From an uncultured archaeon (GTDB taxonomy: Archaea > Asgardarchaeota > Baldrarchaeia > Baldrarchaeales > DXJG01): a stretch of DNA of 30,596 bases. Location of the stretch: assembly GCA_964476035.1 (NCBI GenBank), contig CAYYZD010000002.1, positions 1 to 30,596 of the forward strand. Reading direction: 5' to 3'. The notes below the pieces were generated by a model. That model had not been told where the DNA came from, did not search any database, and was given only the letters and a program-made list of their open reading frames with translations. A program made the position numbers and the translations under genes. Below, piece by piece: positions 3,518-30,275 of this stretch (positions are counted from its first letter, which is position 1; every line of letters starts with the position of its first letter).

Positions 3518-3523
3518 AGACGG

Positions 3524-3730
3524 ATGAATATTGATTGGAGGACAGTTCTTGAAGTTGGATTGATGGTTGTCACGACTATATTCGCTACACAATGGGGGAA
3601 ACTAAAAGAAAAATTCCACGATTTCAGGAAATTAATAGACACGCTTGATGACGCCGTAGCAGATGATAGGGTAACGAGAGAAGAACTCAAACAAATAATT
3701 CAGCGCATAAAAGAGTTGCTAAGGTGGTGA
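3524..3730 (+). CDS. Small membrane protein (one N-terminal hydrophobic helix plus amphipathic tail)
   Basis: TVLEVGLMVVTTIFATQW hydrophobic segment; GGTGA RBS. Confidence 0.7.
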   Translation: MNIDWRTVLEVGLMVVTTIFATQWGKLKEKFHDFRKLIDTLDDAVADDRVTREELKQIIQRIKELLRW

Positions 3731-3732
3731 AC

Positions 3733-3873
3733 ATGGAGGAAATTAAAAAGCCTGTCTTTTTCATTCTTGAGAGAGTGCATTCAGCATGGATACAGTTGAG
3801 GGAAGTATTTTGGAAGCGAGTGGAGGCTCGAGTGAAAAATGCTGCAGCGAGGATGCGGGAATTTCTACAGTAA
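3733..3873 (+). CDS. 46-aa hypothetical protein not in the ORF track (MEEIKKPVFFILERVHSAWIQLREVFWKRVEARVKNAAARMREFLQ)
   Basis: Manual translation; GGTGA RBS directly upstream; fills the gap between 3730 and the Alba gene exactly. Confidence 0.6.
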   Translation: MEEIKKPVFFILERVHSAWIQLREVFWKRVEARVKNAAARMREFLQ

Positions 3874-3874
3874 C

Positions 3875-4114
3875 TTGGTTGTGATCGGAAAGAAACCGTT
3901 ACGTAACTATATTTATGCTGTCCTTGAAAGACTGAGTCGAAGTGGTAAGGCAGTTGTCGCAGCGAAGGGAAATTTAATCGGGAAGGCATGTACCGTTGTG
4001 GAATTTATAAGGCAAAGGTACCCGCAAGTACGGGTTGAAAGGATTTTCCTTGACTCCGAAAACTACGAGAACCGCGTAATCCCTAGATTGCGAATTATTT
4101 TGCTACGCAGTTAA
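3875..4114 (+). CDS. Divergent Alba-family nucleic-acid-binding (chromatin) protein (track start 3839; TTG 3875 or GTG 3881 more likely)
   Basis: VVIGKKPLRNYIYAVL...VVAAKGNLIGKACTVVEFIRQRY matches the Alba consensus VxIGKKPvmNYVlAvl...ikARGraIskAVdvvEivrnrF. Confidence 0.8.
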   Translation: MVVIGKKPLRNYIYAVLERLSRSGKAVVAAKGNLIGKACTVVEFIRQRYPQVRVERIFLDSENYENRVIPRLRIILLRS

Positions 4115-4287
4115 AACTGCACGCACTTAAACCCGTTAGATGATGATTTTTTGATGTTCCGCATGCATTTAAACCGTTTTTTATCGGAGGTATTCACGCA
4201 AAACACGGAGGAAAATGGTTTAACACATTAAATTTCAATTGTGTAATTCTGGTAACATGATCATGGTCGGGTTTTAAGGTTTTTGTC

Positions 4288-4584
4288 GTGTGTTTTGAGG
4301 TAAGGGTAAGATTGTACATAAACTTTACACTGATTGGAGCATCAGAAGTAACAAGAAATTCGATGAGTTATTTGAAGAATACAAACTTCACATTTACCGA
4401 GTCATGGCTTTATAATAGCTATGAGACGTGGGTACAAGGGTCTGTGTGGAGGTTCCGTTTACCAACGGCTTACGATGCCTATTTCATCACCATACCTGCT
4501 GGAACCCATGTCTACTACATAGACTTCCAATTAAATACGCAATGCACAAGCTTGGAATATGCTGTGTGGTTCCAAAATGAATGA
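4288..4584 (+). CDS. Hypothetical aromatic-rich beta-strand protein, possibly the remnant of a gene starting at ATG 4215
   Basis: 98-aa ORF with protein-like composition but no RBS at 4288; GGAGG+ATG at 4215 is immediately followed by a stop. Confidence 0.35.
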   Translation: MCFEVRVRLYINFTLIGASEVTRNSMSYLKNTNFTFTESWLYNSYETWVQGSVWRFRLPTAYDAYFITIPAGTHVYYIDFQLNTQCTSLEYAVWFQNE

Positions 4585-4985
4585 ACCACTCCTATTTTAT
4601 TTTGTTGTGTTGGGTAAAACCATCGATTGCTGAGTATTTTTGTCGGTTCCAATTAGCAAGAATAGGGTATGCTTTACAAACGCAAAGAATGAATGAGTGT
4701 TTTCCTGCTTTTTTACTCGTTTCAAAGGTTTCTGGATGTCGTTTCGACATGCTCAGGGATGACTGAATTTTACTCGTTTTATCTATGTGCAACATGGCAG
4801 AATCAGCAATTTTTATACACTGCGGCGAGATTAATATATATGGGTGTGCAGGTTTGCTGATTGCAATTGAGAGAAAAGCCCATTCCTGTCGTCTCTTGCG
4901 GAAAGAAGAAAGGATATTCCGAGTCTAATTGTAATGTTTTGGTCACTACAAAATTATATGATTTTAGTATTGTGGTCGTGATTGC

Positions 4986-12170: not shown

Positions 12171-12291
12171 AGGGGATAACTTTATAGGTACCATGTTTTT
12201 GATTTCCTTACCTTAGGCAGTTAATGGGATAAGGTTAAAAGGGGAAACTCGCTGTGAAGTATGTAACTTTTAGGTACATGAGGCGATTTAA

Positions 12292-12567
12292 ATGAAGGTT
12301 CCAAAGCAAATAAGAACATACTGTCCGAAATGTAACACGTACACTATTCACTCGGTGTCACTCTACAAGAAGGGAGCTGAGAGAGAATTATCCCAAGGTC
12401 GAAGAAGGTATGAAAGAAAGAAAAAGGGATATGGCTCGCAACCAAAACCAGTGCAGAAAAAATTGGTTAAATCGACTAAGAAACAAACATTAAAGCTCAA
12501 GTGCAGGGAATGCGGGTATATTATTCATAAAAAGGGAATTAGAATTAAAGGCATAGAACTTGTTTAA
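12292..12567 (+). CDS. rpl44e: 50S ribosomal protein L44e
   Basis: RTYCPKC..YTIHSV, GYGSQPKP, KSTKK..LKLKCRECG. Confidence 0.96.
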   Translation: MKVPKQIRTYCPKCNTYTIHSVSLYKKGAERELSQGRRRYERKKKGYGSQPKPVQKKLVKSTKKQTLKLKCRECGYIIHKKGIRIKGIELV

Positions 12568-12668
12568 TTTTATATAAATGTACATAAATCCTCTTTGCCA
12601 TCGATATTTCATAAATTTTAAATAAGAAGTTTCAAGTTTAAAGACTGTTGTAGGATGGAGGACCGTAT

Positions 12669-12866
12669 ATGGGGCGAAAAAATTTATTGATCCCAGAACC
12701 AAGGTCGAGGTTTGTTAAAGTCTCATGTCCAGATTGCGGTAATGAACAGGTCATATTTGGCTGTGCAAGTACCAAAGTTCGATGTTTAGTTTGCAATCGT
12801 ATACTTGCGGTACCCAGTGGAGGTAAGGCAAAAATACAGGCTAAAATCATTAAAGTACTCGGATGA
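12669..12866 (+). CDS. rps27e: 30S ribosomal protein S27e
   Basis: [39 protein letters not shown]. Confidence 0.96.
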
Positions 12867-13069
12867 TAAAAGAAATTTAAATTGTAATTTAGCTTTTCCC
12901 TTTACCTAAAAGTAACATATATAGCCACGTTAGCTCCTACATTTTAAAACTGAATTATTGATTTAAGTTGATAACGTTTTTAGCTGCCAGAATCATCTCA
13001 ACATTTTTAAATACTTTTTATAAACGTTGTATCGTTCCCTTAAGGATACCCATATTGGAGGAAGTACTT

Positions 13070-17599: not shown

Positions 17600-18730
17600 A
17601 TGAAAGAAAAAACATGAAAGATAGGGTTTATCGTCAATCCCATAGCCGGAATGGGCGGAGTTGTGGGCTTAAAAGGTACGGATGAGGAAGTTATTTTGAA
17701 AAAAGCCCTAAAATTAGGGGCAAAACCAGTTGCTCCCAAAAGAGCAGAGGAAGCCCTAAAAAATCTATTGCCATTAAAAGAACACTTAGAATTAATTACT
17801 TACCCCCATAATATGGGTCAGGACGAAGCAGTTAGTGTCGGGTTTTCACCCATGGTAATCGGAAATATAACTCCAGGAAAAACATCGGCAAAAAGATACC
17901 AAGCAAGCAGCAAGAGAAATGAAGAAACTTAAAGTAGATTTGATTGTTCTTTGCGGCGGCTGCGGCGGCGACGGAACTGCTTGTGACATTTACGAGGCTA
18001 TTGGTGATAGCGTCCCTTTTATTGGCGTTCCAGCAGGAGTAAAAATGCATAGTGCAGTTTTTGCAGTAAACCCGAAAGCTGCAGCAGAAGTTGTAATCAA
18101 ATTTTTAACTGAGGGACTTCCTTTAAGGCAGGCAGAAGTTATGGATATAGATGAAGATGCTTTTAGAACTGGTGTACTTTCTGCAAAGCTGAAAGGTTAT
18201 CTTCTAGTCCCGTATGAACCTGAACTTATGCAAGGTGTAAAGACATCTAGCCCCTTAACGGCAAATGAAGAGGAAAATAAGATGGCCACAGCAAGATACA
18301 TTGTTGAAAATATGGATCCTGAAATATTTTACATTTTGGGTCCTGGTACAACTACTAAGGTCATTGCGGACCTTCTAGGCGTTAAAAAATCTTACTTGGC
18401 GTTGACATTATAAAAAACGGGAAAATAATTGCTAGAGATGTTGGAGAAAAGAAAATCTTAGAGGTAATAAGAGGTAAAAAAGCTAAAATTATTGTAACAC
18501 CCATTGGAAATCAGGGCTTCATCTTTGGTAGAGGGAATCAGCAAATAAGTCCCAAGGTCATTAGAGAAGTCGGCATCAAGAATGTTATTGTTATAGCGAC
18601 ACGGTATAAGCTTTCTACAATAAAATATTTGAGAGTTGATACCGGTGATGAAAGTTTAGATGAAGAATTAAGAGGATATACCCGTGTGATTGTTGATTAT
18701 AATGAAGAAAAAGTTGTTAAAGTAGTTTAA
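17600..18730 (+). pseudogene. ATP-NAD kinase / AcoX-like (COG3199) gene with several disruptions
   Basis: IGFIVNPIAGMGG.VGLKGTD, GGDGT, GVPAGVKMHS, GPGTTT and GQGF-like NQGFIFGRGNQQISP motifs spread over three segments. TGA at 17615-17617 (or an extra A after ATG 17614), +1 in the A-run 17890-17894, -1 near 18390. Confidence 0.85.
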
Positions 18731-18732
18731 AG

Positions 18733-19158
18733 CTATTCTTCTTCAAGTTTCTTTTTTAGATATTCGGCGTATTCTTTCGCTGTCATGAGATTTTTAAGGT
18801 CGTTTTCCAGGTCTGTTGGTTCTACAACGATCATCCAACCATTCCCGTAGGGATCATCCTCTACTATTTGCGGCATGTCTTCCAGTTCGGTGTTAACTTC
18901 AAGTACTTTGCCAGATACTGGAGAATAGAGATCTTCTGTAGCTTTTTCGGATTCTATCTCTCCGAATGGTTGGTTAAACTTTACTTCATCGCCCGCACTA
19001 ACTTCGAAACCAATGTAAGTTATGTTACCTAGCTGTTTTCTAGCATAATCCGTAATTCCCACTCTAACCTTCCCGTTCTCCTTTTTTAACCATTCGTGAG
19101 TATCGCTATAATATAAATCTTCAGGAATTTCATAGTCGTTTACTTTTATCTCTATCAC
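18733..19158 (-). CDS. gcvH: Glycine cleavage system H protein (start ambiguous: ATG 19191 or GTG 19158)
   Basis: YSDTHEW, RVGITDYA..QLG, EIESEKA lipoyl-Lys motif, DPYGNGW. Confidence 0.95.
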   Translation of the reverse strand: MIEIKVNDYEIPEDLYYSDTHEWLKKENGKVRVGITDYARKQLGNITYIGFEVSAGDEVKFNQPFGEIESEKATEDLYSPVSGKVLEVNTELEDMPQIVEDDPYGNGWMIVVEPTDLENDLKNLMTAKEYAEYLKKKLEEE

Positions 19159-19162
19159 CCTC

Positions 19163-20311
19163 CTACGTATCTTTTTTTCTATTATAGCCATATCTTTCTA
19201 TATCGTAAAAGGGCCATTTAACTATTTTTGCATCCACAAGTTTACCCCTAATATTTATTTTAACGGCCTCGTTCACCTGTGCATATTCAGAATTTATAAG
19301 CCCAAACCCTATCCCTCTTTCAAGTATTGGTGAAAAAGCGCCACTTGTAACATATCCGATCTTTTCATGATCTTTCAGTATTTCGTAGCCATGTCTCGGG
19401 ACCCTACGTCCAGAGAGTTTTAGTCCCACCCTCTTCCTCTTTACACCTTCTTCTTTCTGTTTTAATAACGCACTTCGCCCAATGAAGTCTCCCTTCTTAA
19501 ATTTTACAACAAACCTCAGTCCAGCTTCAAGTGGAGAAATCGTCTCATTGATATCGTTCCCGTATAAAACCATTCCAGCTTCAAGTCGTAGAGTGTCCCT
19601 TGCACCCAATCCACAGGGTTTAATTCCATGCTCCGTGCCAGCTTCCAAGATTTTCTCCCACAAATCAATTGCCTTTTCTTTTTCTGAGAATGGAACATTT
19701 AACATAATTATTTCAAAGCCGTCTTCTCCGGTATATCCAGATCTGGATACTATGGTATCATATCCTCCCAATTTTGTCAACATGCACCAATATCTCTTTA
19801 TCCCGCTAAGATCGTCGCTAGTAAGCTTCTCAAGCGTAGATTGAGCTTTTGGCCCTTGAACTGCAAACATACAGGTTACATCAGAAACATCCTCAATTTT
19901 AACATTAAAATTTTGTGATTTTTCCTTAAACCAATTGTTTATTTTTTCTCTATTCACAGCATTAACGACTACAACATATTTGTTATCTTCGATCTTAAAT
20001 AGGGTTATATCGTCTTTTATCCCACCTCTGTCATTACAAACAACGGAATATTGTCCCTGTCCAAGTTTTTTTAGCCTTTTAACATTGTTTGTAGTAACAT
20101 ATTGTAGAAAGTCTTCTGCATCACTTCCGCTAACCATAAAACGCCCCATATGCGTTACGTCGAAAATTCCCACATTTTCCCGAACAGCTAAATGTTCTTT
20201 AATTATTCCACCTGTATCCTCATACCAGAGGGGCATGCACCAACCAACAAATTCAACCATCTTCGCCCTTTTTTTATGCCACTCATACAAGTGAGTTTTA
20301 TGAAGATCCAT
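19163..20311 (-). CDS. gcvT: Glycine cleavage system aminomethyltransferase T
   Basis: KTHLYEWH, EHLAVR..VGIFDVTHMG, SRSGYTGEDGFE, GLGARDTLRLEAG. Confidence 0.96.
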   Translation of the reverse strand: MDLHKTHLYEWHKKRAKMVEFVGWCMPLWYEDTGGIIKEHLAVRENVGIFDVTHMGRFMVSGSDAEDFLQYVTTNNVKRLKKLGQGQYSVVCNDRGGIKDDITLFKIEDNKYVVVVNAVNREKINNWFKEKSQNFNVKIEDVSDVTCMFAVQGPKAQSTLEKLTSDDLSGIKRYWCMLTKLGGYDTIVSRSGYTGEDGFEIIMLNVPFSEKEKAIDLWEKILEAGTEHGIKPCGLGARDTLRLEAGMVLYGNDINETISPLEAGLRFVVKFKKGDFIGRSALLKQKEEGVKRKRVGLKLSGRRVPRHGYEILKDHEKIGYVTSGAFSPILERGIGFGLINSEYAQVNEAVKINIRGKLVDAKIVKWPFYDIERYGYNRKKDT

Positions 20312-20512: not shown

Positions 20513-21742
20513 ATGAAAATACGAGGGGAAATCGCTAATATTCCAGTAGGCGATGATTATGATGTAGTCGTTGTAGGAGTTATAAATGTTAGTCCTGAGT
20601 CGTTCTATAAGGGTTCTATTGTTAAATCGAAAAAAGAAATAGAAGAAAAAGCACTAGAAATGGTTGAAGAAGGAGCCAAAATATTAGATGTAGGTGCAAT
20701 GTCCACCGCTCCAGGGGTTCCTCCCATATCTCTGAAGGAAGAAAAGAAACGTATGCTTTTTGCTATGAAAGCATTGCGAGATATCATTGATGTACCGATA
20801 AGTGCCGATACGTTTAGGGCGGAAGTTGCAAATGTTGCATTAAAGGAGGGGGCTGAGATCATAAATGATGTTAGTGGCTTAAAGGCCGACAAGAAGATGG
20901 CTAAAATAATTTCAGAGTACGATGCGTCAGTTATTGTTATGGCTGCTGAAAAACGCCCAGGAGATGTAGGAAAAATTTTGAAAATAAAACATGCACTTAG
21001 ACAAAGTTTACAAATCGCAAAAAGCAGTGGCATTTCTGAGGAGAAAATTGCTGTAGATCCCGGAATCGGCTTCGGGAAAAAGGTTACGGAGGACCTTCAT
21101 ATACTTAGAAATTTAAATAGGTTGAGAAGTCTTTGCAGACCTATTTTAGTAGGAGTTTCAAGAAAGTCTTTTATAGGGAAAATCCTTAATCTGAAAGATC
21201 CGAGGGAAAGACTAATTGGTAGTCTAGCGGCAACAGCTATCGCAGTATACAACGGCGCCCACTTAATAAGGACTCATGATGTTAGAGAAACTCTGCAAGC
21301 TGTTAAAATAGCTGAATCAATCAGGAGAAATGTTTTAAGCTTAGATGCGGATGGAATAAAAGTTACACTATTATACACTTCCAGCTATTTCGGCGACCTA
21401 GAAGATTTATTTGTTAAGATAGGTGTTGACAGATGGGCATTGAACATATTCAATCAAAAATCGATATATCTTGCTGTACTTGTTGAAAACATTAGTACTC
21501 CAGCTGCATTAATTATTAAACAGGAAATGTTAGCATGTGGCGGTGACGCTGCTCTGCCCAAGGAAATGATAGATTTCCATTTAAAGAAAGGATCTATCAT
21601 TATTTTTGGAACTTATGCCCAATATAGGAAATTAGTAAAAAAAATTAGAAAAATGCCTTTCCATCTTTCTGTTGTTGCAAAACTTTTGAAAAGGATATTA
21701 GGAGTGTGTAAGGAAAATGACTATGACTCTTATACCCATTAA
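20513..21742 (+). CDS. folP: Dihydropteroate synthase with extra ~130-aa C-terminal domain
   Basis: GVINVSPESF, GAKILDVGAMST.PG, ISADT, INDVSG, DPGIGFGK, GVSRKSFIG, RTHDV. Confidence 0.9.
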   Translation: MKIRGEIANIPVGDDYDVVVVGVINVSPESFYKGSIVKSKKEIEEKALEMVEEGAKILDVGAMSTAPGVPPISLKEEKKRMLFAMKALRDIIDVPISADTFRAEVANVALKEGAEIINDVSGLKADKKMAKIISEYDASVIVMAAEKRPGDVGKILKIKHALRQSLQIAKSSGISEEKIAVDPGIGFGKKVTEDLHILRNLNRLRSLCRPILVGVSRKSFIGKILNLKDPRERLIGSLAATAIAVYNGAHLIRTHDVRETLQAVKIAESIRRNVLSLDADGIKVTLLYTSSYFGDLEDLFVKIGVDRWALNIFNQKSIYLAVLVENISTPAALIIKQEMLACGGDAALPKEMIDFHLKKGSIIIFGTYAQYRKLVKKIRKMPFHLSVVAKLLKRILGVCKENDYDSYTH

Positions 21743-22508
21743 GACTAGGATGATTACTCCAGGTGACGATATAGTTGAAGTGGTACTCAAGTCCCTAAAG
21801 AAAGTAGGTGGGAGAATTAAAAATAGAGATATACTAGTTTTGGCTGAAACTGCTGTTGCAACAGCCGAAGGGAGAATCATCGAACTAAATAAAATAAAAC
21901 CTAGTTCTGAAGCATTAAAACTATCAAAAATGTATGATATTGTTCCAGAACTGGCTGAATTGATTTTGCGAGAAGCTGATGAAATTCTGGGTGGTGTTCC
22001 CCACGTTGTTCTCACTTTAAAGAATGGTGTTTTGATTGCTAATGCTGGTATTGATAAATCTAATGCCCCACCGGGCTGTGTTGTACTACTTCCCCAGAAT
22101 CCTATGAAAACCGCTCAGGAAATTAGAAAGAAAGTTTTTGAAAAGACCGGGAAGAAAATTGGTGTTATAATTGCTGACAGTAGAACTCAACCTTTGAGAC
22201 TTGGAACCATAGGTGTCGCTTTAGGTGTTGCTGGTTTTATTCCAGTATCTGATGAACGAGGAAAATTGGATATCTTTGGAAAACCTCTAATGATAACGAG
22301 ACGAGCAATAGCTGATAATCTGGCATCAGCTGCGGAAGTTTTAATGGGTGAAGCAGGGGAGATGGTACCAGCAGTCTTGATCAGAGGTGCACCTGTTGCA
22401 TTCACCGATTGCCCCATTAACCTTGAAAGTATGTTAATATCCCCAGAGGAATGTCTTTATATGTCCATCTTTAAAAACGTATTTAAAGACTTTAAGAATA
22501 AAAAATAA
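21717..22508 (+). CDS. cofE: CofE-family gamma-glutamyl ligase (F420:glutamate ligase or alternative folylglutamate synthase)
   Basis: ANAGIDKSN, IADS, GVALGVAG, D.RG..D.FG..L.IT..AIAD.LASAA...MGE..E..P..LIRG. Confidence 0.8.
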   Translation: MTMTLIPIKTRMITPGDDIVEVVLKSLKKVGGRIKNRDILVLAETAVATAEGRIIELNKIKPSSEALKLSKMYDIVPELAELILREADEILGGVPHVVLTLKNGVLIANAGIDKSNAPPGCVVLLPQNPMKTAQEIRKKVFEKTGKKIGVIIADSRTQPLRLGTIGVALGVAGFIPVSDERGKLDIFGKPLMITRRAIADNLASAAEVLMGEAGEMVPAVLIRGAPVAFTDCPINLESMLISPEECLYMSIFKNVFKDFKNKK

Positions 22509-26355: not shown

Positions 26356-26707
26356 GATTATTTTTGAAGAGAAAATAGAAGAAAGGGGTTATAAGATTTC
26401 CATATTGGGTATAAAACTCACCAATGGAATAATAGTAGTTGTTACAGATACCACATACAAAATTGGAACAATTGCGCTTGCAACTCCCTCAAGGATCCCT
26501 GAAGTAGGGAAAAGAGCAATTTCGTCACTGCTTACAGCCTTCGACATGACGAAAGAAGCAGTTACACGCGCTATTGCAGAAAGATTAGCTAGTGAACTTA
26601 ATACGGTCGTTCTAGCCATAGTTAACATAAGAGAAAAGAACTTAGATCGATACAAAACTATAGTTAAGGGTATCAACAATTTAATCAAGAAAATCAAGGG
26701 ACAGTGA
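26348..26707 (+). CDS. Proteasome assembly chaperone 4 (PAC4/Pba4)-fold protein, possible LpdD-like prFMN chaperone
   Basis: Beta-rich N-half with KIGTIALATP, then AIAERLASELNTVVLAIVNI resembling the PAC4 'la.rLark....vfvs.n' helix; stop overlaps the ubiX GTG. Confidence 0.55.
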   Translation: MSEIIFEEKIEERGYKISILGIKLTNGIIVVVTDTTYKIGTIALATPSRIPEVGKRAISSLLTAFDMTKEAVTRAIAERLASELNTVVLAIVNIREKNLDRYKTIVKGINNLIKKIKGQ

Positions 26708-27270
26708 TAGATTTGGAATTAATTGTAGCATTAACTGGGGCAAGTGGAGTAATATACGGTGTTCAACTACTGAAGACTTTAAAAAGAATAAAAGCAAAAA
26801 TTCACTTAATTATTTCAGAGCCAGCCAAGGTAATCATTAAACACGAATTAAATTTAGATATAGAGGAAATAGAAAAGCTTGCAGACTTCACTTATGATCC
26901 CTGGGATTTCACAGCGCCTATCGCTAGTGGTTCTTATCAATCGGATGGGATGGTAGTTATACCTTGCAGTATGAAGACCCTCTCTGCAATAGCTAATGGT
27001 TACGCGGATAATCTTATTGTTAGAGCTGCTGAATGTATGCTAAAAGAAAAGAAGCCATTAATTCTTGTCCCTAGAGAAACCCCTCTGTCCTTGGTTCATT
27101 TAAGAAATATGGTTAAGGCTGCGGAGGCAGGTGCAATAATAATTCCCGCAATGCCAGGATTTTACCACAAACCTGAAACCATCGAAGATCTTGTAAACTT
27201 CATAGTGGGGAAAATTCTTGACATACTGGGTATCCAACACGACTTATATAGGAGATGGGGAGGAAAGTGA
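26704..27270 (+). CDS. ubiX: Flavin prenyltransferase UbiX
   Basis: ALTGASGVIYG, APIASGS, PCSMKTL, DNLIVRAA, LVPRETPL, PAMPGFYH.P. Confidence 0.96.
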   Translation: MIDLELIVALTGASGVIYGVQLLKTLKRIKAKIHLIISEPAKVIIKHELNLDIEEIEKLADFTYDPWDFTAPIASGSYQSDGMVVIPCSMKTLSAIANGYADNLIVRAAECMLKEKKPLILVPRETPLSLVHLRNMVKAAEAGAIIIPAMPGFYHKPETIEDLVNFIVGKILDILGIQHDLYRRWGGK

Positions 27271-28610
27271 GCTTAAGGAATTTTATATTAGAACTGGAGA
27301 AAGATGCAGAATTAATAACCATTAAAAAGGAATTAAGTACCAAGTATGAGATAGCTGCTGTAATCAAAAAGTTCGATAATGGTCCGGCTCTTTTTTTTAA
27401 AAAAATTAAACAAAAACGCGGCTCGATAGTTGCAAACATTTGTGGCACTAGAGAAAGAGTCTGCAAAGCCCTAGGAACTAGTATTGATAAATTACATAAA
27501 AAAGTATCAAATGCTATTAAAAACCCAAAAAAACCGAAACTTACAGAATTCCTTCTCTCCAAATATGCTCAAAATCCTCCAAACATAAACAGTCTTCCAA
27601 TACTTACCCACTACGAAAAGGACCCCGGACCTTACATAACAGCTGGAATCGTATTTGCAAGAGACCCAGAGACTGGAATTCAAAACGCATCAATACACAG
27701 AATGTTAGTTATTGACGAAAAACATCTAGCTATAAGAGTTGTACCTAGACACTTGCATAGAATAATAACAGCTTACTGGAAGGAAAAAAGAGATGTACCC
27801 GTAGCCATTGCCATTGGAACCCACCCAGCGGTTCTAATTGCTGCATCATCGCCAGTCCCCTACGGTGTAAATGAACTTCATGTAGCAAACACTCTTCTTA
27901 AGGAATCTATGGAAGTTGCTATATGTCCAAATACGGAACTGGAAGTTCCAACAAATGCAGAAATAATTATTGAAGGAAAAATTTTATACGGTAAAGAAGT
28001 TGATGAAGGGCCGTTCGTCGATTTAACGGGAACCTACGATGTTGTAAGAAAACAACCTGTAATAAAAATAGAAAAAATGTATTTTAATCGGGATAACTTT
28101 ATTTATCAGGCTATTTTGCCTGGGGGAAGCGAACATAAATTGTTAATGGGCCTTCCGAGGGAGGCACAAATATGGACTGCTGTTAAGTCTGTTGTTCCCG
28201 ATGTAAGAGGAGTGCATTTAACTTTAGGCGGTTGTGGATGGCTGCATGCAGTCGTTTCCATTAAAAAGCAAACTGATGGAGATGCTAAAAATGTTATATT
28301 GGCTGCTTTCGCAGCTCATCCAAGCCTTAAACATGTTGTTGTAGTTGACGACGACATAGATCCTTATGATATGGAAGAAGTGGAATGGGCAATTGCAACG
28401 AGATTTAATGCTTCCCGAGACTTGGTGATAATACAAAATGTTAGAGGCTCAAGTCTGGATCCTTCTGCGGACCAAATTACTCTTATGACTACAAAAATGG
28501 GAATTGATGCTACAAGACCATTTACTAAACCTAAAGAAAAGTTCGAAAAAGCAAAAATACCCATCGAAGAGAAAATCGACATTAATAACTTAACAGAGGA
28601 AGACAATTAA
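27255..28610 (+). CDS. ubiD: UbiD-family prFMN-dependent decarboxylase, probably trans-anhydromevalonate 5-phosphate decarboxylase
   Basis: DPGPYITAG, NASIHR, EGPFVDLTGTYD, EH..LM, VVVDDDIDP...EVEWAIATR, KMGIDAT; adjacent to acnX. Confidence 0.9.
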   Translation: MGRKVSLRNFILELEKDAELITIKKELSTKYEIAAVIKKFDNGPALFFKKIKQKRGSIVANICGTRERVCKALGTSIDKLHKKVSNAIKNPKKPKLTEFLLSKYAQNPPNINSLPILTHYEKDPGPYITAGIVFARDPETGIQNASIHRMLVIDEKHLAIRVVPRHLHRIITAYWKEKRDVPVAIAIGTHPAVLIAASSPVPYGVNELHVANTLLKESMEVAICPNTELEVPTNAEIIIEGKILYGKEVDEGPFVDLTGTYDVVRKQPVIKIEKMYFNRDNFIYQAILPGGSEHKLLMGLPREAQIWTAVKSVVPDVRGVHLTLGGCGWLHAVVSIKKQTDGDAKNVILAAFAAHPSLKHVVVVDDDIDPYDMEEVEWAIATRFNASRDLVIIQNVRGSSLDPSADQITLMTTKMGIDATRPFTKPKEKFEKAKIPIEEKIDINNLTEEDN

Positions 28611-29830
28611 TGTTTCTAACTAAAGAAGAGGAAAAAATGTTCGATGGAGAATATGGAGAAGCTACTAGGCTAGCAGTGAGGTTAATTGTTAAAGTTGGAG
28701 AAGCTTTAGGCGCTCAAAAATTAATTGACGTAAGTAGTGCGCAAGTTTCGGGGGTATCGTATAAGAACATCGGAGATCCGGGCATCCAGCTCCTAGAAGA
28801 CTTAGTTAAACTTGGAGGGAAAAGTAGAATACTATCAACGCTTAATCCAGCTGGTATGGACTTAAAAAACTGGAAAAAAATGAAAATCGATAAAGATTTT
28901 GCAGAAAAACAACTAAAAATAATTAATTTGTACATACAAATGGGCATCCTCCCAACATGTAGCTGTATACCTTACTTAATCGGTAATTCGCCAAAATATA
29001 GGGCACATATAGCATGGGCAGAATCCTCTGCAGTAACGTACGCTAATTCGGTTTTAGGTGCGAGAACAAATAGAGAGGGCGGACCATTAGCCCTTGCATC
29101 AGCTTTAACCGGGAAAACTGCTTTTTATGGGTTTCATATCGAAGAAAATAGATTCCCAACACACTACATAGAGTTAAGGACTAAGTTGCACAATCCAGCT
29201 GATTACAGCATTTTAGGTTATGTAGTTGGTAAAATAATAAAAACTGGTGTCCCCTTGTTTTCAAACCCTAGAGTGCCCCTAAATGTAGATTGCTTAAAAG
29301 CTTTATCGGCCGGTCTGGCAACTTCAGGAAGTATATCTCTATTCCATATAGAAGACTGCACAATAGAAGCTATGATCGAAAAAAGGCGATTACAGATCGA
29401 AAAAGGCCATATGGAGAAAATAATAATAGAAAAAGAAGAAATAAAGTCTGTTTATGAAGAATACGCATTAACCTCTAGCCCAGATCTCATATACATCGGG
29501 TGTCCTCATGCAAGCATACAAGAAATAGGAAAAATTGCCAAGATGTTAAGAAATAGGAAAATAAAAGGAGATATCGAACTGTGGGTTGGAACTGCCGCTA
29601 ATGTAAAGACACTCGCAGACAGAGCTGGTTATACGGATATAATAGAGAAATCTGGTGGCAAAATTATTACAGATACGTGTATAGTGGTTTCGCCTTTAAA
29701 GTCGCTTGGATTTCAAAAAATTCTTACAAATTCCGCAAAGGCATGTTACTACCTGACAGGTTTAGAAAGATTAAACGTGGGAATAACGACATTAGAAGAC
29801 AGCGTTAAAACTGCCATAGAAGGGTCATGA
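28610..29830 (+). CDS. acnX: Aconitase X large (catalytic) subunit, probably phosphomevalonate dehydratase subunit 1
   Basis: QVSGVSY, TCSCIPY, AWAESSA..YANSV.GARTNREGG, IGCPHAS, DTC.VVSP (Fe-S Cys ligands). Confidence 0.9.
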   Translation: MFLTKEEEKMFDGEYGEATRLAVRLIVKVGEALGAQKLIDVSSAQVSGVSYKNIGDPGIQLLEDLVKLGGKSRILSTLNPAGMDLKNWKKMKIDKDFAEKQLKIINLYIQMGILPTCSCIPYLIGNSPKYRAHIAWAESSAVTYANSVLGARTNREGGPLALASALTGKTAFYGFHIEENRFPTHYIELRTKLHNPADYSILGYVVGKIIKTGVPLFSNPRVPLNVDCLKALSAGLATSGSISLFHIEDCTIEAMIEKRRLQIEKGHMEKIIIEKEEIKSVYEEYALTSSPDLIYIGCPHASIQEIGKIAKMLRNRKIKGDIELWVGTAANVKTLADRAGYTDIIEKSGGKIITDTCIVVSPLKSLGFQKILTNSAKACYYLTGLERLNVGITTLEDSVKTAIEGS

Positions 29831-29831
29831 T

Positions 29832-30275
29832 ATGCATAAAGAAAACAAAAAAGTAGTATTGAAAGGTAGAGGACTAGTTGAGGGGTTAGTCGAGGGAAAA
29901 GCCCTTGTTACCTCTCAGCCTATCTCATTTTACGGTGGTGTTGACCCATTAAGTGGTGTTGTTACCGAAAGAGGACATGAACTTGAAGGAAAAGTAATAT
30001 CTGGTAAAATTTTGGTTTTTCCTTACGGTAAGGGCAGCACAGTGGGCTCGTATGTTATTTATCATATGGCAAAGATAGGATCAGCCCCTTTAGCAATAAT
30101 TAATTTAGAGTCAGAGCCAATAATTGTTGCGGGATGCGTGCTTGCAAACATACCTCTAGTAGATAAGTTAGATAAAGATCCGATTAAAACGATTGAAACA
30201 GGGGATATAGTTCAGGTAGACGGAACTCATGGATTTGTGGTCATATTATCAAAGCCTCAGAAACATAAACAATAA
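29832..30275 (+). CDS. Aconitase X swiveling-domain small subunit, probably phosphomevalonate dehydratase subunit 2
   Basis: ISFYGGVDP.SG, GHEL.G..I.GKILVFP.GKGSTVGSYV. Confidence 0.92.
   Translation: MHKENKKVVLKGRGLVEGLVEGKALVTSQPISFYGGVDPLSGVVTERGHELEGKVISGKILVFPYGKGSTVGSYVIYHMAKIGSAPLAIINLESEPIIVAGCVLANIPLVDKLDKDPIKTIETGDIVQVDGTHGFVVILSKPQKHKQ

Follow-up and report, generated by a model that had tools for sequence, protein, structure and literature searches.

A 30,596-nucleotide (nt) stretch of DNA from a Baldrarchaeales archaeon (GenBank assembly GCA_964476035.1, contig CAYYZD010000002.1, positions 1-30,596 of the forward strand), referred to here as the window, contains a gene that most likely encodes a two-domain folate-synthesis protein, composed of a dihydropteroate synthase (DHPS, FolP) barrel and a tail that belongs to a putative flavin-dependent dihydropteroate reductase family (Prd). 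Judged by its sequence, the tail is a true homologue of the N-terminal domain of Helicobacter pylori FolP, and the two proteins have both domains in common with their order reversed. Across the relatives compared, this C-terminal arrangement (FolP-Prd) is the unannotated standard form in a large archaeal DHPS clade and is not unique to the genome of the window. Both domains are identified, their homology to H. pylori FolP and their reversed order are evident from the alignments, the tail carries the signature of its family, the gene is paired with that of a CofE-family ligase and the structural model is compact and confident.

The Prd-like domain is covalently fused to the DHPS barrel in one single open reading frame (ORF). 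An earlier note on this DNA placed the ORF at 20513-21742, which is confirmed exactly (plus strand, 409 amino acids, aa), and had the barrel end at about 21330, in agreement with residue 272 ending at nt 21328; the tail peptides that it quoted are present in the translation. The DHPS-then-tail architecture is also found in the complete genomes CP061209 (Methanosarcinales) and CP147778 (Freyarchaeum), and an assembly or fusion artefact is ruled out by the occurrence of the identical architecture in >120 independent sequences, complete genomes among them.

The first domain is matched by the Pfam family Pterin_bind (PF00809) over residues 22-255 (E 3e-66, 223.9 bits, cutoff 25.5) and by the DHPS equivalog TIGR01496 over residues 20-269 (253.8 bits, cutoff 162.6). 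With the archaeal DHPS-like model TIGR00284 it reaches only 33.6 bits, where 256 would be needed. Significant sequence matches in the Protein Data Bank (PDB) are exclusively DHPS chains, none of which reaches past residue ~275. The barrel is 36% identical to Escherichia coli (Ec) DHPS, the sequence of which was checked to be identical to PDB 1aj0, and residues N25, F31, D99, N118, D182, K218, R253 and H255 correspond to Ec N22, F28, D96, N115, D185, K221, R255 and H257. All of these are invariant across 65 C-type sequences, in which the tail follows the barrel (N-type denoting the H. pylori order), and Ec N22, D96, N115, D185, K221, R255 and H257 are the pterin- and diphosphate-binding residues of the 1aj0 structure. 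A departure is found in loop 2, where S-T-R-P (Ec S61-T62-R63-P64) is replaced by S64-T65-A66-P67 (nt 20702-20713), so that the loop-2 arginine is missing. The alanine is nearly invariant over the archaeal DHPS clade, in tailed and tail-less proteins alike, and H. pylori retains S-R-P. The DHPS half is judged intact, and the cutoffs of the family hidden Markov models (HMMs) are passed despite the loop-2 change. The substitution might touch the handling of p-aminobenzoate (pABA) or sulfonamides, or the choice of substrate.

The tail, comprising the last ~135 residues, has no sequence family in Pfam (E<=10), NCBIfam or the PDB. These blank scans are explained by the absence of a Pfam or NCBIfam model for the H. 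pylori N-terminal extension too, and weak matches of the tail or the H. pylori N-terminus to MAP10_N, ankyrin repeats and Gfh1 were judged to be noise. The earlier note had given a motif of H. pylori FolP, KQEAISVGGDFATP, which proved accurate: back-translated to a degenerate DNA pattern and searched against a 596-Gb genome collection, it matches contigs of H. pylori (24) and H. cetorum (one) only. It lies in an ORF (L024:5373-6527, 384 aa) that encodes a FolP with a ~120-residue N-terminal extension, which contains ...LILKQEAISVGGDFATP...QLERLIVKCHSQPFGLKNLA.... Pairwise alignment of the window tail with this N-terminus, the check that the note proposed, is significant (BLASTP, 31% identity over 111 aa, E 2e-14). 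In a full-length comparison, window residues 20-273 align to H. pylori 121-379 (E 1e-37, 30% identical) and residues 296-403 to H. pylori 11-118 (E 2e-11). Furthermore, in a local search that covered 288 sequences, an HMM built from 19 archaeal tails matches residues 2-118 of H. pylori FolP with E 2e-21. When 7.3 Gb of plasmid DNA were searched by tblastn with the tail, there was one match, the first ~130 aa of a 382-aa folP product of Sulfurovum mangrovi (E 1e-5), a member of Campylobacterota. The tail is co-linear with the H. pylori domain, which rules out a circular permutation inside the domain; the description of the enzyme as 'permuted' therefore holds for the order of the two domains and fails for the interior of the domain. 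The N-type folP genes of H. pylori and Sulfurovum are each preceded by a small gene (L024:4720-5376 and L041:2268-2729, respectively), which is annotated as DNA polymerase III delta-prime in Sulfurovum and overlaps folP by 4 nt in H. pylori; this neighbourhood bears no relation to that of the archaeal genes.

The absence of any Pfam, NCBIfam or PDB sequence match, together with an empty search of a word-indexed set of 5.8 billion proteins when the tail alone served as the query, could be taken to mean that the resemblance to H. pylori is due to chance or composition and that the tail is an unrelated, lineage-specific extension. The full-length query and an exhaustive profile search did succeed, the latter with 762 clusters at E<=1e-10 that include both architectures. 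With the pairwise and profile E-values given above, the single specific match in the plasmid DNA and a co-linear alignment of the whole domain with a shared signature, these match statistics already refute a chance resemblance, to which we assign a vanishingly small probability.

The signature emerges from a conservation alignment in which 123 C-type proteins were compared with 48 of the N-type, all of them full-length. Conserved in both types are K316, A332, I334, KQEML (336-340), GGDAA (343-347), GT (366-367), Q370 and PFxL (382-385), with KQEMLACGGDAA as the family signature, and the window protein carries every residue that the two types have in common. The frequencies in C-type and N-type proteins, respectively, are 100% and 100% for K316 and for K336, 98% and 96% for Q337, 100% and 96% for G343, 97% and 96% for G344, and 96% and 96% for A347. 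Retention of the polar signature whatever the domain order argues for a ligand-binding or catalytic site shared by the N-type and C-type domains.

The bifunctional layout that the note described for this archaeon is not peculiar to it. Within a large clade of archaeal DHPS it is standard, and the sample analysed here includes 123 full-length proteins of this kind. Full-length relatives number in the hundreds, are 397-431 aa long and cover 93-100% of the window protein. The closest named one comes from Candidatus Baldrarchaeia (83% identity), and others are found in Freyarchaeota, Jordarchaeia, Odinarchaeota and more Asgard lineages, and in Hydrothermarchaeota, Methanothrix, Methanosarcinales, Methanocellales and Hecatella; all those bearing a name are called just 'dihydropteroate synthase'. 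By this distribution, the C-terminal order is the standard form of an archaeal clade comprising Asgard archaea, Methanosarcinales, Methanothrix, Hydrothermarchaeota and others. N-type proteins are found in Deltaproteobacteria and also in Thermoplasmata archaea.

At E<=1e-3, an exhaustive search with the tail profile yields 965 clusters, each counted by its representative at 50% identity. Among the best 150 of these, 63 have the tail before DHPS (32 with a complete barrel) and 20 have it after DHPS (16 complete), while 50 are tail-only proteins (<=160 aa) and 17 combine the tail with something else. The idea that every tail-only match is a fragment is partly true: the tail-only entry P0123 clusters with a 407-aa protein and is a fragment, yet at least one, L040:39-398, is a complete stand-alone tail ORF of 119 aa, preceded by stop codons in all frames and not followed by a DHPS. 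A fusion of the tail with FolB (P0147) has seven cluster members from Peptococcaceae and Desulfotomaculum on contigs of up to 95 kb; further fusions involve HPPK/FolK (P0231) and PurN (P0223), and a tandem double tail also occurs (P0121). The FolB, FolK and PurN partners each score above their NCBIfam equivalog cutoff, while the tail domain has no Pfam or NCBIfam model in any of these four proteins or in L040. By its fusions, the tail is thus a mobile module, partnered almost exclusively with folate enzymes.

Simple neighbour-joining trees were used to trace the domain order, with a C-type sample collected by similarity to the window protein. In the tree of DHPS barrels, 123 of 123 C-type proteins fall into one clade with zero N-type proteins inside, which amounts to one architecture change; the tree of tails is nearly congruent, with 123 C-type proteins and one N-type protein grouped together and two changes. 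The C-terminal order therefore appears to have a single origin in the archaeal DHPS clade. Nested within the C-type clade are six tail-less DHPS of 274-290 aa from Hodarchaeaceae and relatives, from which it follows that the tail was probably lost later, in a Hodarchaeaceae-like lineage.

The surroundings of the gene are, by the families encoded there, related to folate. Upstream lie gcvT, the product of which is a tetrahydrofolate-using enzyme, and gcvH, and downstream follows a candidate FolC2-like ligase of the CofE family, whose ATG at 21717 lies inside the 3' end of folP (26-nt overlap). Pairing of folP with a CofE-family gene occurs in five distant archaeal lineages, the window included, across phyla. 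The ligase gene lies 13 nt downstream of folP in Hecatella, is adjacent and divergent in Freyarchaeum and lies two genes downstream of folP in a Methanosarcinales genome, within a cluster of radical-SAM, glyA, folD, purN, thiC, purH and folP genes; the ligases of these three are 50-53% identical to that of the window. Between folP and the CofE-like gene of the Methanosarcinales locus lies a toxin-antitoxin-like nucleotidyltransferase/HEPN pair (L026:9330-10306).

The tail-less Hodarchaeaceae loci retain gcvT, folP and the ligase, with gcvT and folP divergent as in the window, and have a second F420_ligase gene beside cofD, which allows the two paralogues to be compared. The window ligase is 49-50% identical to the folP-linked copy (231-243 bits) and 39-40% identical to the cofD-linked copy (121-145 bits), and by this comparison is clearly nearer to the folP-linked type than to the cofD-linked one. 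In the Hodarchaeaceae-type loci (L042:1-7642 and L043:1-7642), a radical-SAM/SPASM gene is located directly upstream of the tail-less folP, and a Bac_luciferase-family oxidoreductase and an FrhB/FdhB-like protein, both F420-linked, are encoded between gcvT and cofD-cofE. That an F420-dependent reductase might replace the lost tail there is pure speculation.

These observations lead to a proposed pathway. By homology, the barrel would condense 6-hydroxymethyl-7,8-dihydropterin diphosphate with p-aminobenzoate to 7,8-dihydropteroate. The tail, carrying reduced flavin, would then convert 7,8-dihydropteroate to tetrahydropteroate, as suggested by its homology to the H. pylori domain, and the CofE-type ligase, the gene of which is translationally coupled to folP, would add glutamate to tetrahydropteroate, yielding tetrahydrofolate, as suggested by the FolC2 precedent and by synteny. 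The product would be consumed by the glycine-cleavage system encoded next to folP, and tail and ligase together would bypass both FolA and FolC. We infer from these comparisons that the tail binds flavin and carries out the reductase reaction, that reduction precedes glutamylation and that dihydrofolate reductase (DHFR) is dispensable. We consider it probable, though well short of certain, that the complete sequence of DHPS reaction, flavin-dependent reduction by the tail and CofE-type glutamylation describes this locus correctly.

Several points weigh against this pathway or limit its support. The ligase passes the F420 CofE model TIGR01916 (209.6 bits, cutoff 180.65) and stays below the cutoff of the folate gamma-glutamate ligase model TIGR04132 (132.6 against 350 bits); its folate role is likely on the strength of synteny and the paralogue comparison, while the NCBIfam scores alone would make it a CofE. 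No folA, folM, folC, thyA or thyX is present among the Pfam-scanned ORFs of the window, a negative that applies to these 30.6 kb only. As for the tail, it shares just 31% of its residues with the domain characterised in H. pylori, a classical flavin-binding motif is not recognisable, biochemical data belong to the H. pylori type alone, the window type being known from sequence, and the Hodarchaeaceae, as close relatives, function without it, so that the tail is not indispensable to the DHPS clade. The points concerning the tail would equally suit a homologous domain that is no reductase in the C-type clade and instead serves DHPS as a structural, oligomerisation or pterin/folate-sensing module, with another enzyme carrying out the reduction. 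However, K316, K336, Q337, E338, D345, T367 and Q370 are equally conserved in N-type, C-type and stand-alone forms, which points to a shared ligand-binding or catalytic site rather than a scaffold, and fusions to FolB, FolK and PurN would be odd for a regulatory or oligomerisation domain specific to DHPS. A non-reductase tail is thus regarded as unlikely, while keeping an appreciable share of the probability.

The last point that weighs against the proposed pathway concerns the barrel, where the replacement of Ec R63 by alanine across the archaeal clade could entail altered substrate handling. This change, along with the many methanogens in the C-type clade (Methanothrix, Methanosarcinales, Methanocellales), would fit synthesis of methanopterin, sarcinapterin or another modified pterin, in which the barrel uses an arylamine other than pABA and the tail reduces a dihydromethanopterin-type intermediate. 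However, the barrel lies above the TIGR01496 cutoff and far below that of TIGR00284, the tail domain is also fused to bacterial FolB, FolK and PurN, and the Methanosarcinales gene is placed with glyA, folD, purN and purH, a cluster that Buchenau and Thauer reportedly described in 2004 as tetrahydrofolate-specific in Methanosarcina. Taken together, these findings make a modified-pterin pathway improbable, and folate synthesis by DHPS, tail and ligase is preferred.

The type enzyme for such a route is that of H. pylori, which Levin et al. are said to have described in 2004 and 2007 as a DHPS/flavin mononucleotide (FMN)-dependent dihydropteroate reductase (HP1232-type FolP, 'DHFR2'). The window protein and H. 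pylori FolP have both domains and the signature residues in common, and both are annotated merely as 'dihydropteroate synthase'. However, the reductase domain precedes the barrel in H. pylori and follows it in the window protein, the barrels belong to separate clades, with arginine in loop 2 of H. pylori and alanine in that of the window, and the window gene has a CofE-family ligase gene as its coupled partner, while H. pylori is tabulated with FolC and without FolA or FolM (PMC1971073). A passage in the same source, citing Levin 2007, describes the H. pylori protein as a fusion of DHPS with a flavin-dependent dihydropteroate reductase, and equivalent reasoning has been applied to Methylacidiphilum FolP (PMC2474590). 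In haloarchaea, a DHFR deletion of Haloferax is rescued by Halobacterium and Haloarcula genes (PMC3235422), and the architecture is given as 'FolC-Prd-FolP' (PMC3403918). Compared by description, the latter (for example Natrialba magadii Nmag_2554) resembles the window protein in being an archaeal Prd-FolP fusion and an alternative route to reduced folate, but has Prd N-terminal to FolP and FolC fused in front, whereas the window protein has Prd C-terminal and the CofE-family ligase is encoded by a separate gene; it was sought with the tail by tblastn in the plasmid collection and not found, Sulfurovum being the only match there. In the published cases found (Prd-FolP, FolC-Prd-FolP), the reductase domain is always immediately N-terminal to the barrel. 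A full-text literature search, which covered the citing papers but neither the original reports by Levin et al. nor the paper of 2012 on archaeal folate, found no description of the FolP-Prd order or of the ThyX-like fold considered below. For the ligase, the precedent is Chlamydia CT611 (FolC2, CofE-family, COG1478), which is clustered with folate genes and complements an E. coli folC mutant (PMC1971073). Both ligases are of the CofE family and clustered with folP, in a locus or organism without folC, and they differ in that the window ligase scores as an F420 CofE and below the TIGR04132 cutoff.

The tail alone is predicted by AlphaFold2 (AF2) with a predicted local distance difference test (pLDDT) of 90.3 and a beta-alpha-alpha-beta-alpha-beta-alpha-beta-alpha-alpha order. 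The full-length model (pLDDT 93.4, predicted template-modelling score 0.90) has an ordered connector with strands at 276-279 and 282-289, as would be expected of a compact enzyme of two domains. A Foldseek search with the model of the tail has no match that reaches E<=1e-3. The top matches in the PDB are to PBCV-1 ThyX, with Thermotoga maritima and Mycobacterium tuberculosis ThyX lower in the list; these ThyX matches have E 0.02-0.3, probabilities up to 0.99 and query-normalised template-modelling (TM) scores of 0.57-0.66, with mostly large root-mean-square deviations (RMSDs), while non-ThyX matches reach TM 0.25-0.38, those to KH domains and RNA-polymerase Rpb11/L-like proteins being set aside as generic alpha/beta similarity. 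In the independent BFVD library, phage ThyX again comes out on top (E 6.6e-3 and 1.7e-2, probability 1.00, TM 0.57-0.60), one of these matches having an RMSD of 3.9 A. Kinship with ThyX (PF02511) at the sequence level is rejected: hmmsearch of the PDB with the tail HMM matched no ThyX chain, and hhalign gave probabilities of 0.07% against T. maritima ThyX, the sequence of which was verified, and of 0.33% when 171 tails were aligned with a diverse set of nine ThyX (T. maritima and eight phage sequences). In addition, the ThyX motif RHRxxS is absent from the tail, which is about half the size of ThyX. The likeness is therefore put forward as a reproducible fold-level resemblance and a lead. It is suggestive because ThyX binds flavin and folate, the folate being stacked on flavin adenine dinucleotide (FAD), in a route that avoids making dihydrofolate.

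Coordinates of the fusion gene, its neighbours and the paired ligase genes are collected in Table 1. The window as a whole is an ordinary piece of archaeal chromosome, with genes for Csl4, PCNA, primase, GINS, aIF2-alpha, AglB, RadA, RadB, CarS, UbiX, UbiD and AcnX. Four contiguous genes at 26704-30275 (+) encode a UbiX-type flavoprotein, UbiD and the large and small subunits of AcnX, a set that we take to represent the archaeal modified mevalonate pathway (phosphomevalonate dehydratase and prenyl-FMN-dependent decarboxylase); AcnX genes are found near folP in L043 too. For a 164-aa ORF at 17919-18413 (+), the only match is to the final part of the NAD_kinase N-terminal domain model (positions 71-127 of 130), so that it may represent an NAD kinase gene that is truncated or has been given a wrong start. 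Two regions, 3518-4985 (~1.5 kb) and 12171-12967 (~0.8 kb), have no ORF of at least 110 aa on either strand.

Table 1. Coordinates of the fusion gene and its parts, the adjacent genes in the window, and CofE-family genes paired with folP at other loci (locus handle before the colon)
Feature	Position	Strand	Evidence
Whole ORF, 'FolP-Prd' (DHPS + C-terminal Prd/DHPR-like domain), 409 aa	20513..21742	+	ORF call, domain matches, AF2 model
DHPS TIM barrel, residues 18-272	20564..21328	+	PF00809, TIGR01496, PDB sequence matches
Inter-domain connector, residues 273-284, ordered, with beta-strand 276-279	21329..21364	+	pLDDT 91-94, full-length model
C-terminal Prd/DHPR-like domain, residues 285-405, ~120 aa	21365..21727	+	BLASTP, profile search, AF2 model
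Family signature KQEMLACGGDAA, residues 336-347	21518..21553	+	Conservation table, N-type vs C-type
CofE-family gamma-glutamyl ligase, 263 aa, candidate FolC2-like	21717..22508	+	PF01996 E 9e-77; synteny
gcvT, glycine-cleavage aminomethyltransferase, divergent from folP	19163..20311	-	PF01571 E 1e-92, PF08669
gcvH, glycine-cleavage H protein	18733..19191	-	PF01597 E 1.3e-38
CofE-family (F420_ligase) gene paired with folP	L030:9273-10064
CofE-family (F420_ligase) gene paired with folP	L028:7147-7914	-
CofE-family (F420_ligase) gene paired with folP	L026:10471-11280
CofE-family (F420_ligase) gene paired with folP	L042:6872-7642
CofE-family (F420_ligase) gene paired with folP	L043:6890-7642

Beyond what the earlier note proposed, the analysis adds a large family without a Pfam or NCBIfam model, its promiscuous fusions to folate enzymes, a conserved CofE-type partner and a ThyX-like predicted fold, the last being the first structural hypothesis for the mechanism and flavin site of this reductase family. 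A wider conjecture, which we hold as tentative and on balance doubtful, is that the ThyX core has an ancient, minimal relative in Prd/DHPR, a flavin and pterin module of ~110 residues that became a mobile 'pterin reductase' cassette, was joined independently to either end of FolP and to FolB, FolK and PurN, and together with a FolC2-like CofE paralogue fills the DHFR and FolC steps in Asgard archaea and folate-using methanogens. If this is true, Prd would stack the dihydropterin ring on reduced flavin as ThyX does folate, and both DHFR-free lifestyles, one using ThyX and the other using Prd to reduce dihydropteroate, would share one fold.

The reversed order indicates that the putative reductase module can work on either side of the barrel, as well as in fusion with FolB, FolK and PurN, and this freedom of placement limits the ways in which substrate could travel from one active site to the other. 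The reductase domain has been hidden in annotation, since its members are labelled only 'dihydropteroate synthase' and Pfam and NCBIfam have no model for it; in metabolic reconstructions of these lineages, the DHFR step consequently probably appears as a gap that is not real. Hundreds of annotations would be corrected by a domain model derived from the present alignment. Tetrahydrofolate is made or used by many archaea, and by some bacteria, that have no recognisable DHFR or FolC. The locus described here offers a concrete, testable two-gene solution, FolP-Prd and a CofE-type ligase, which would extend to Asgard archaea, Methanosarcinales, Methanothrix, Hydrothermarchaeota and others.

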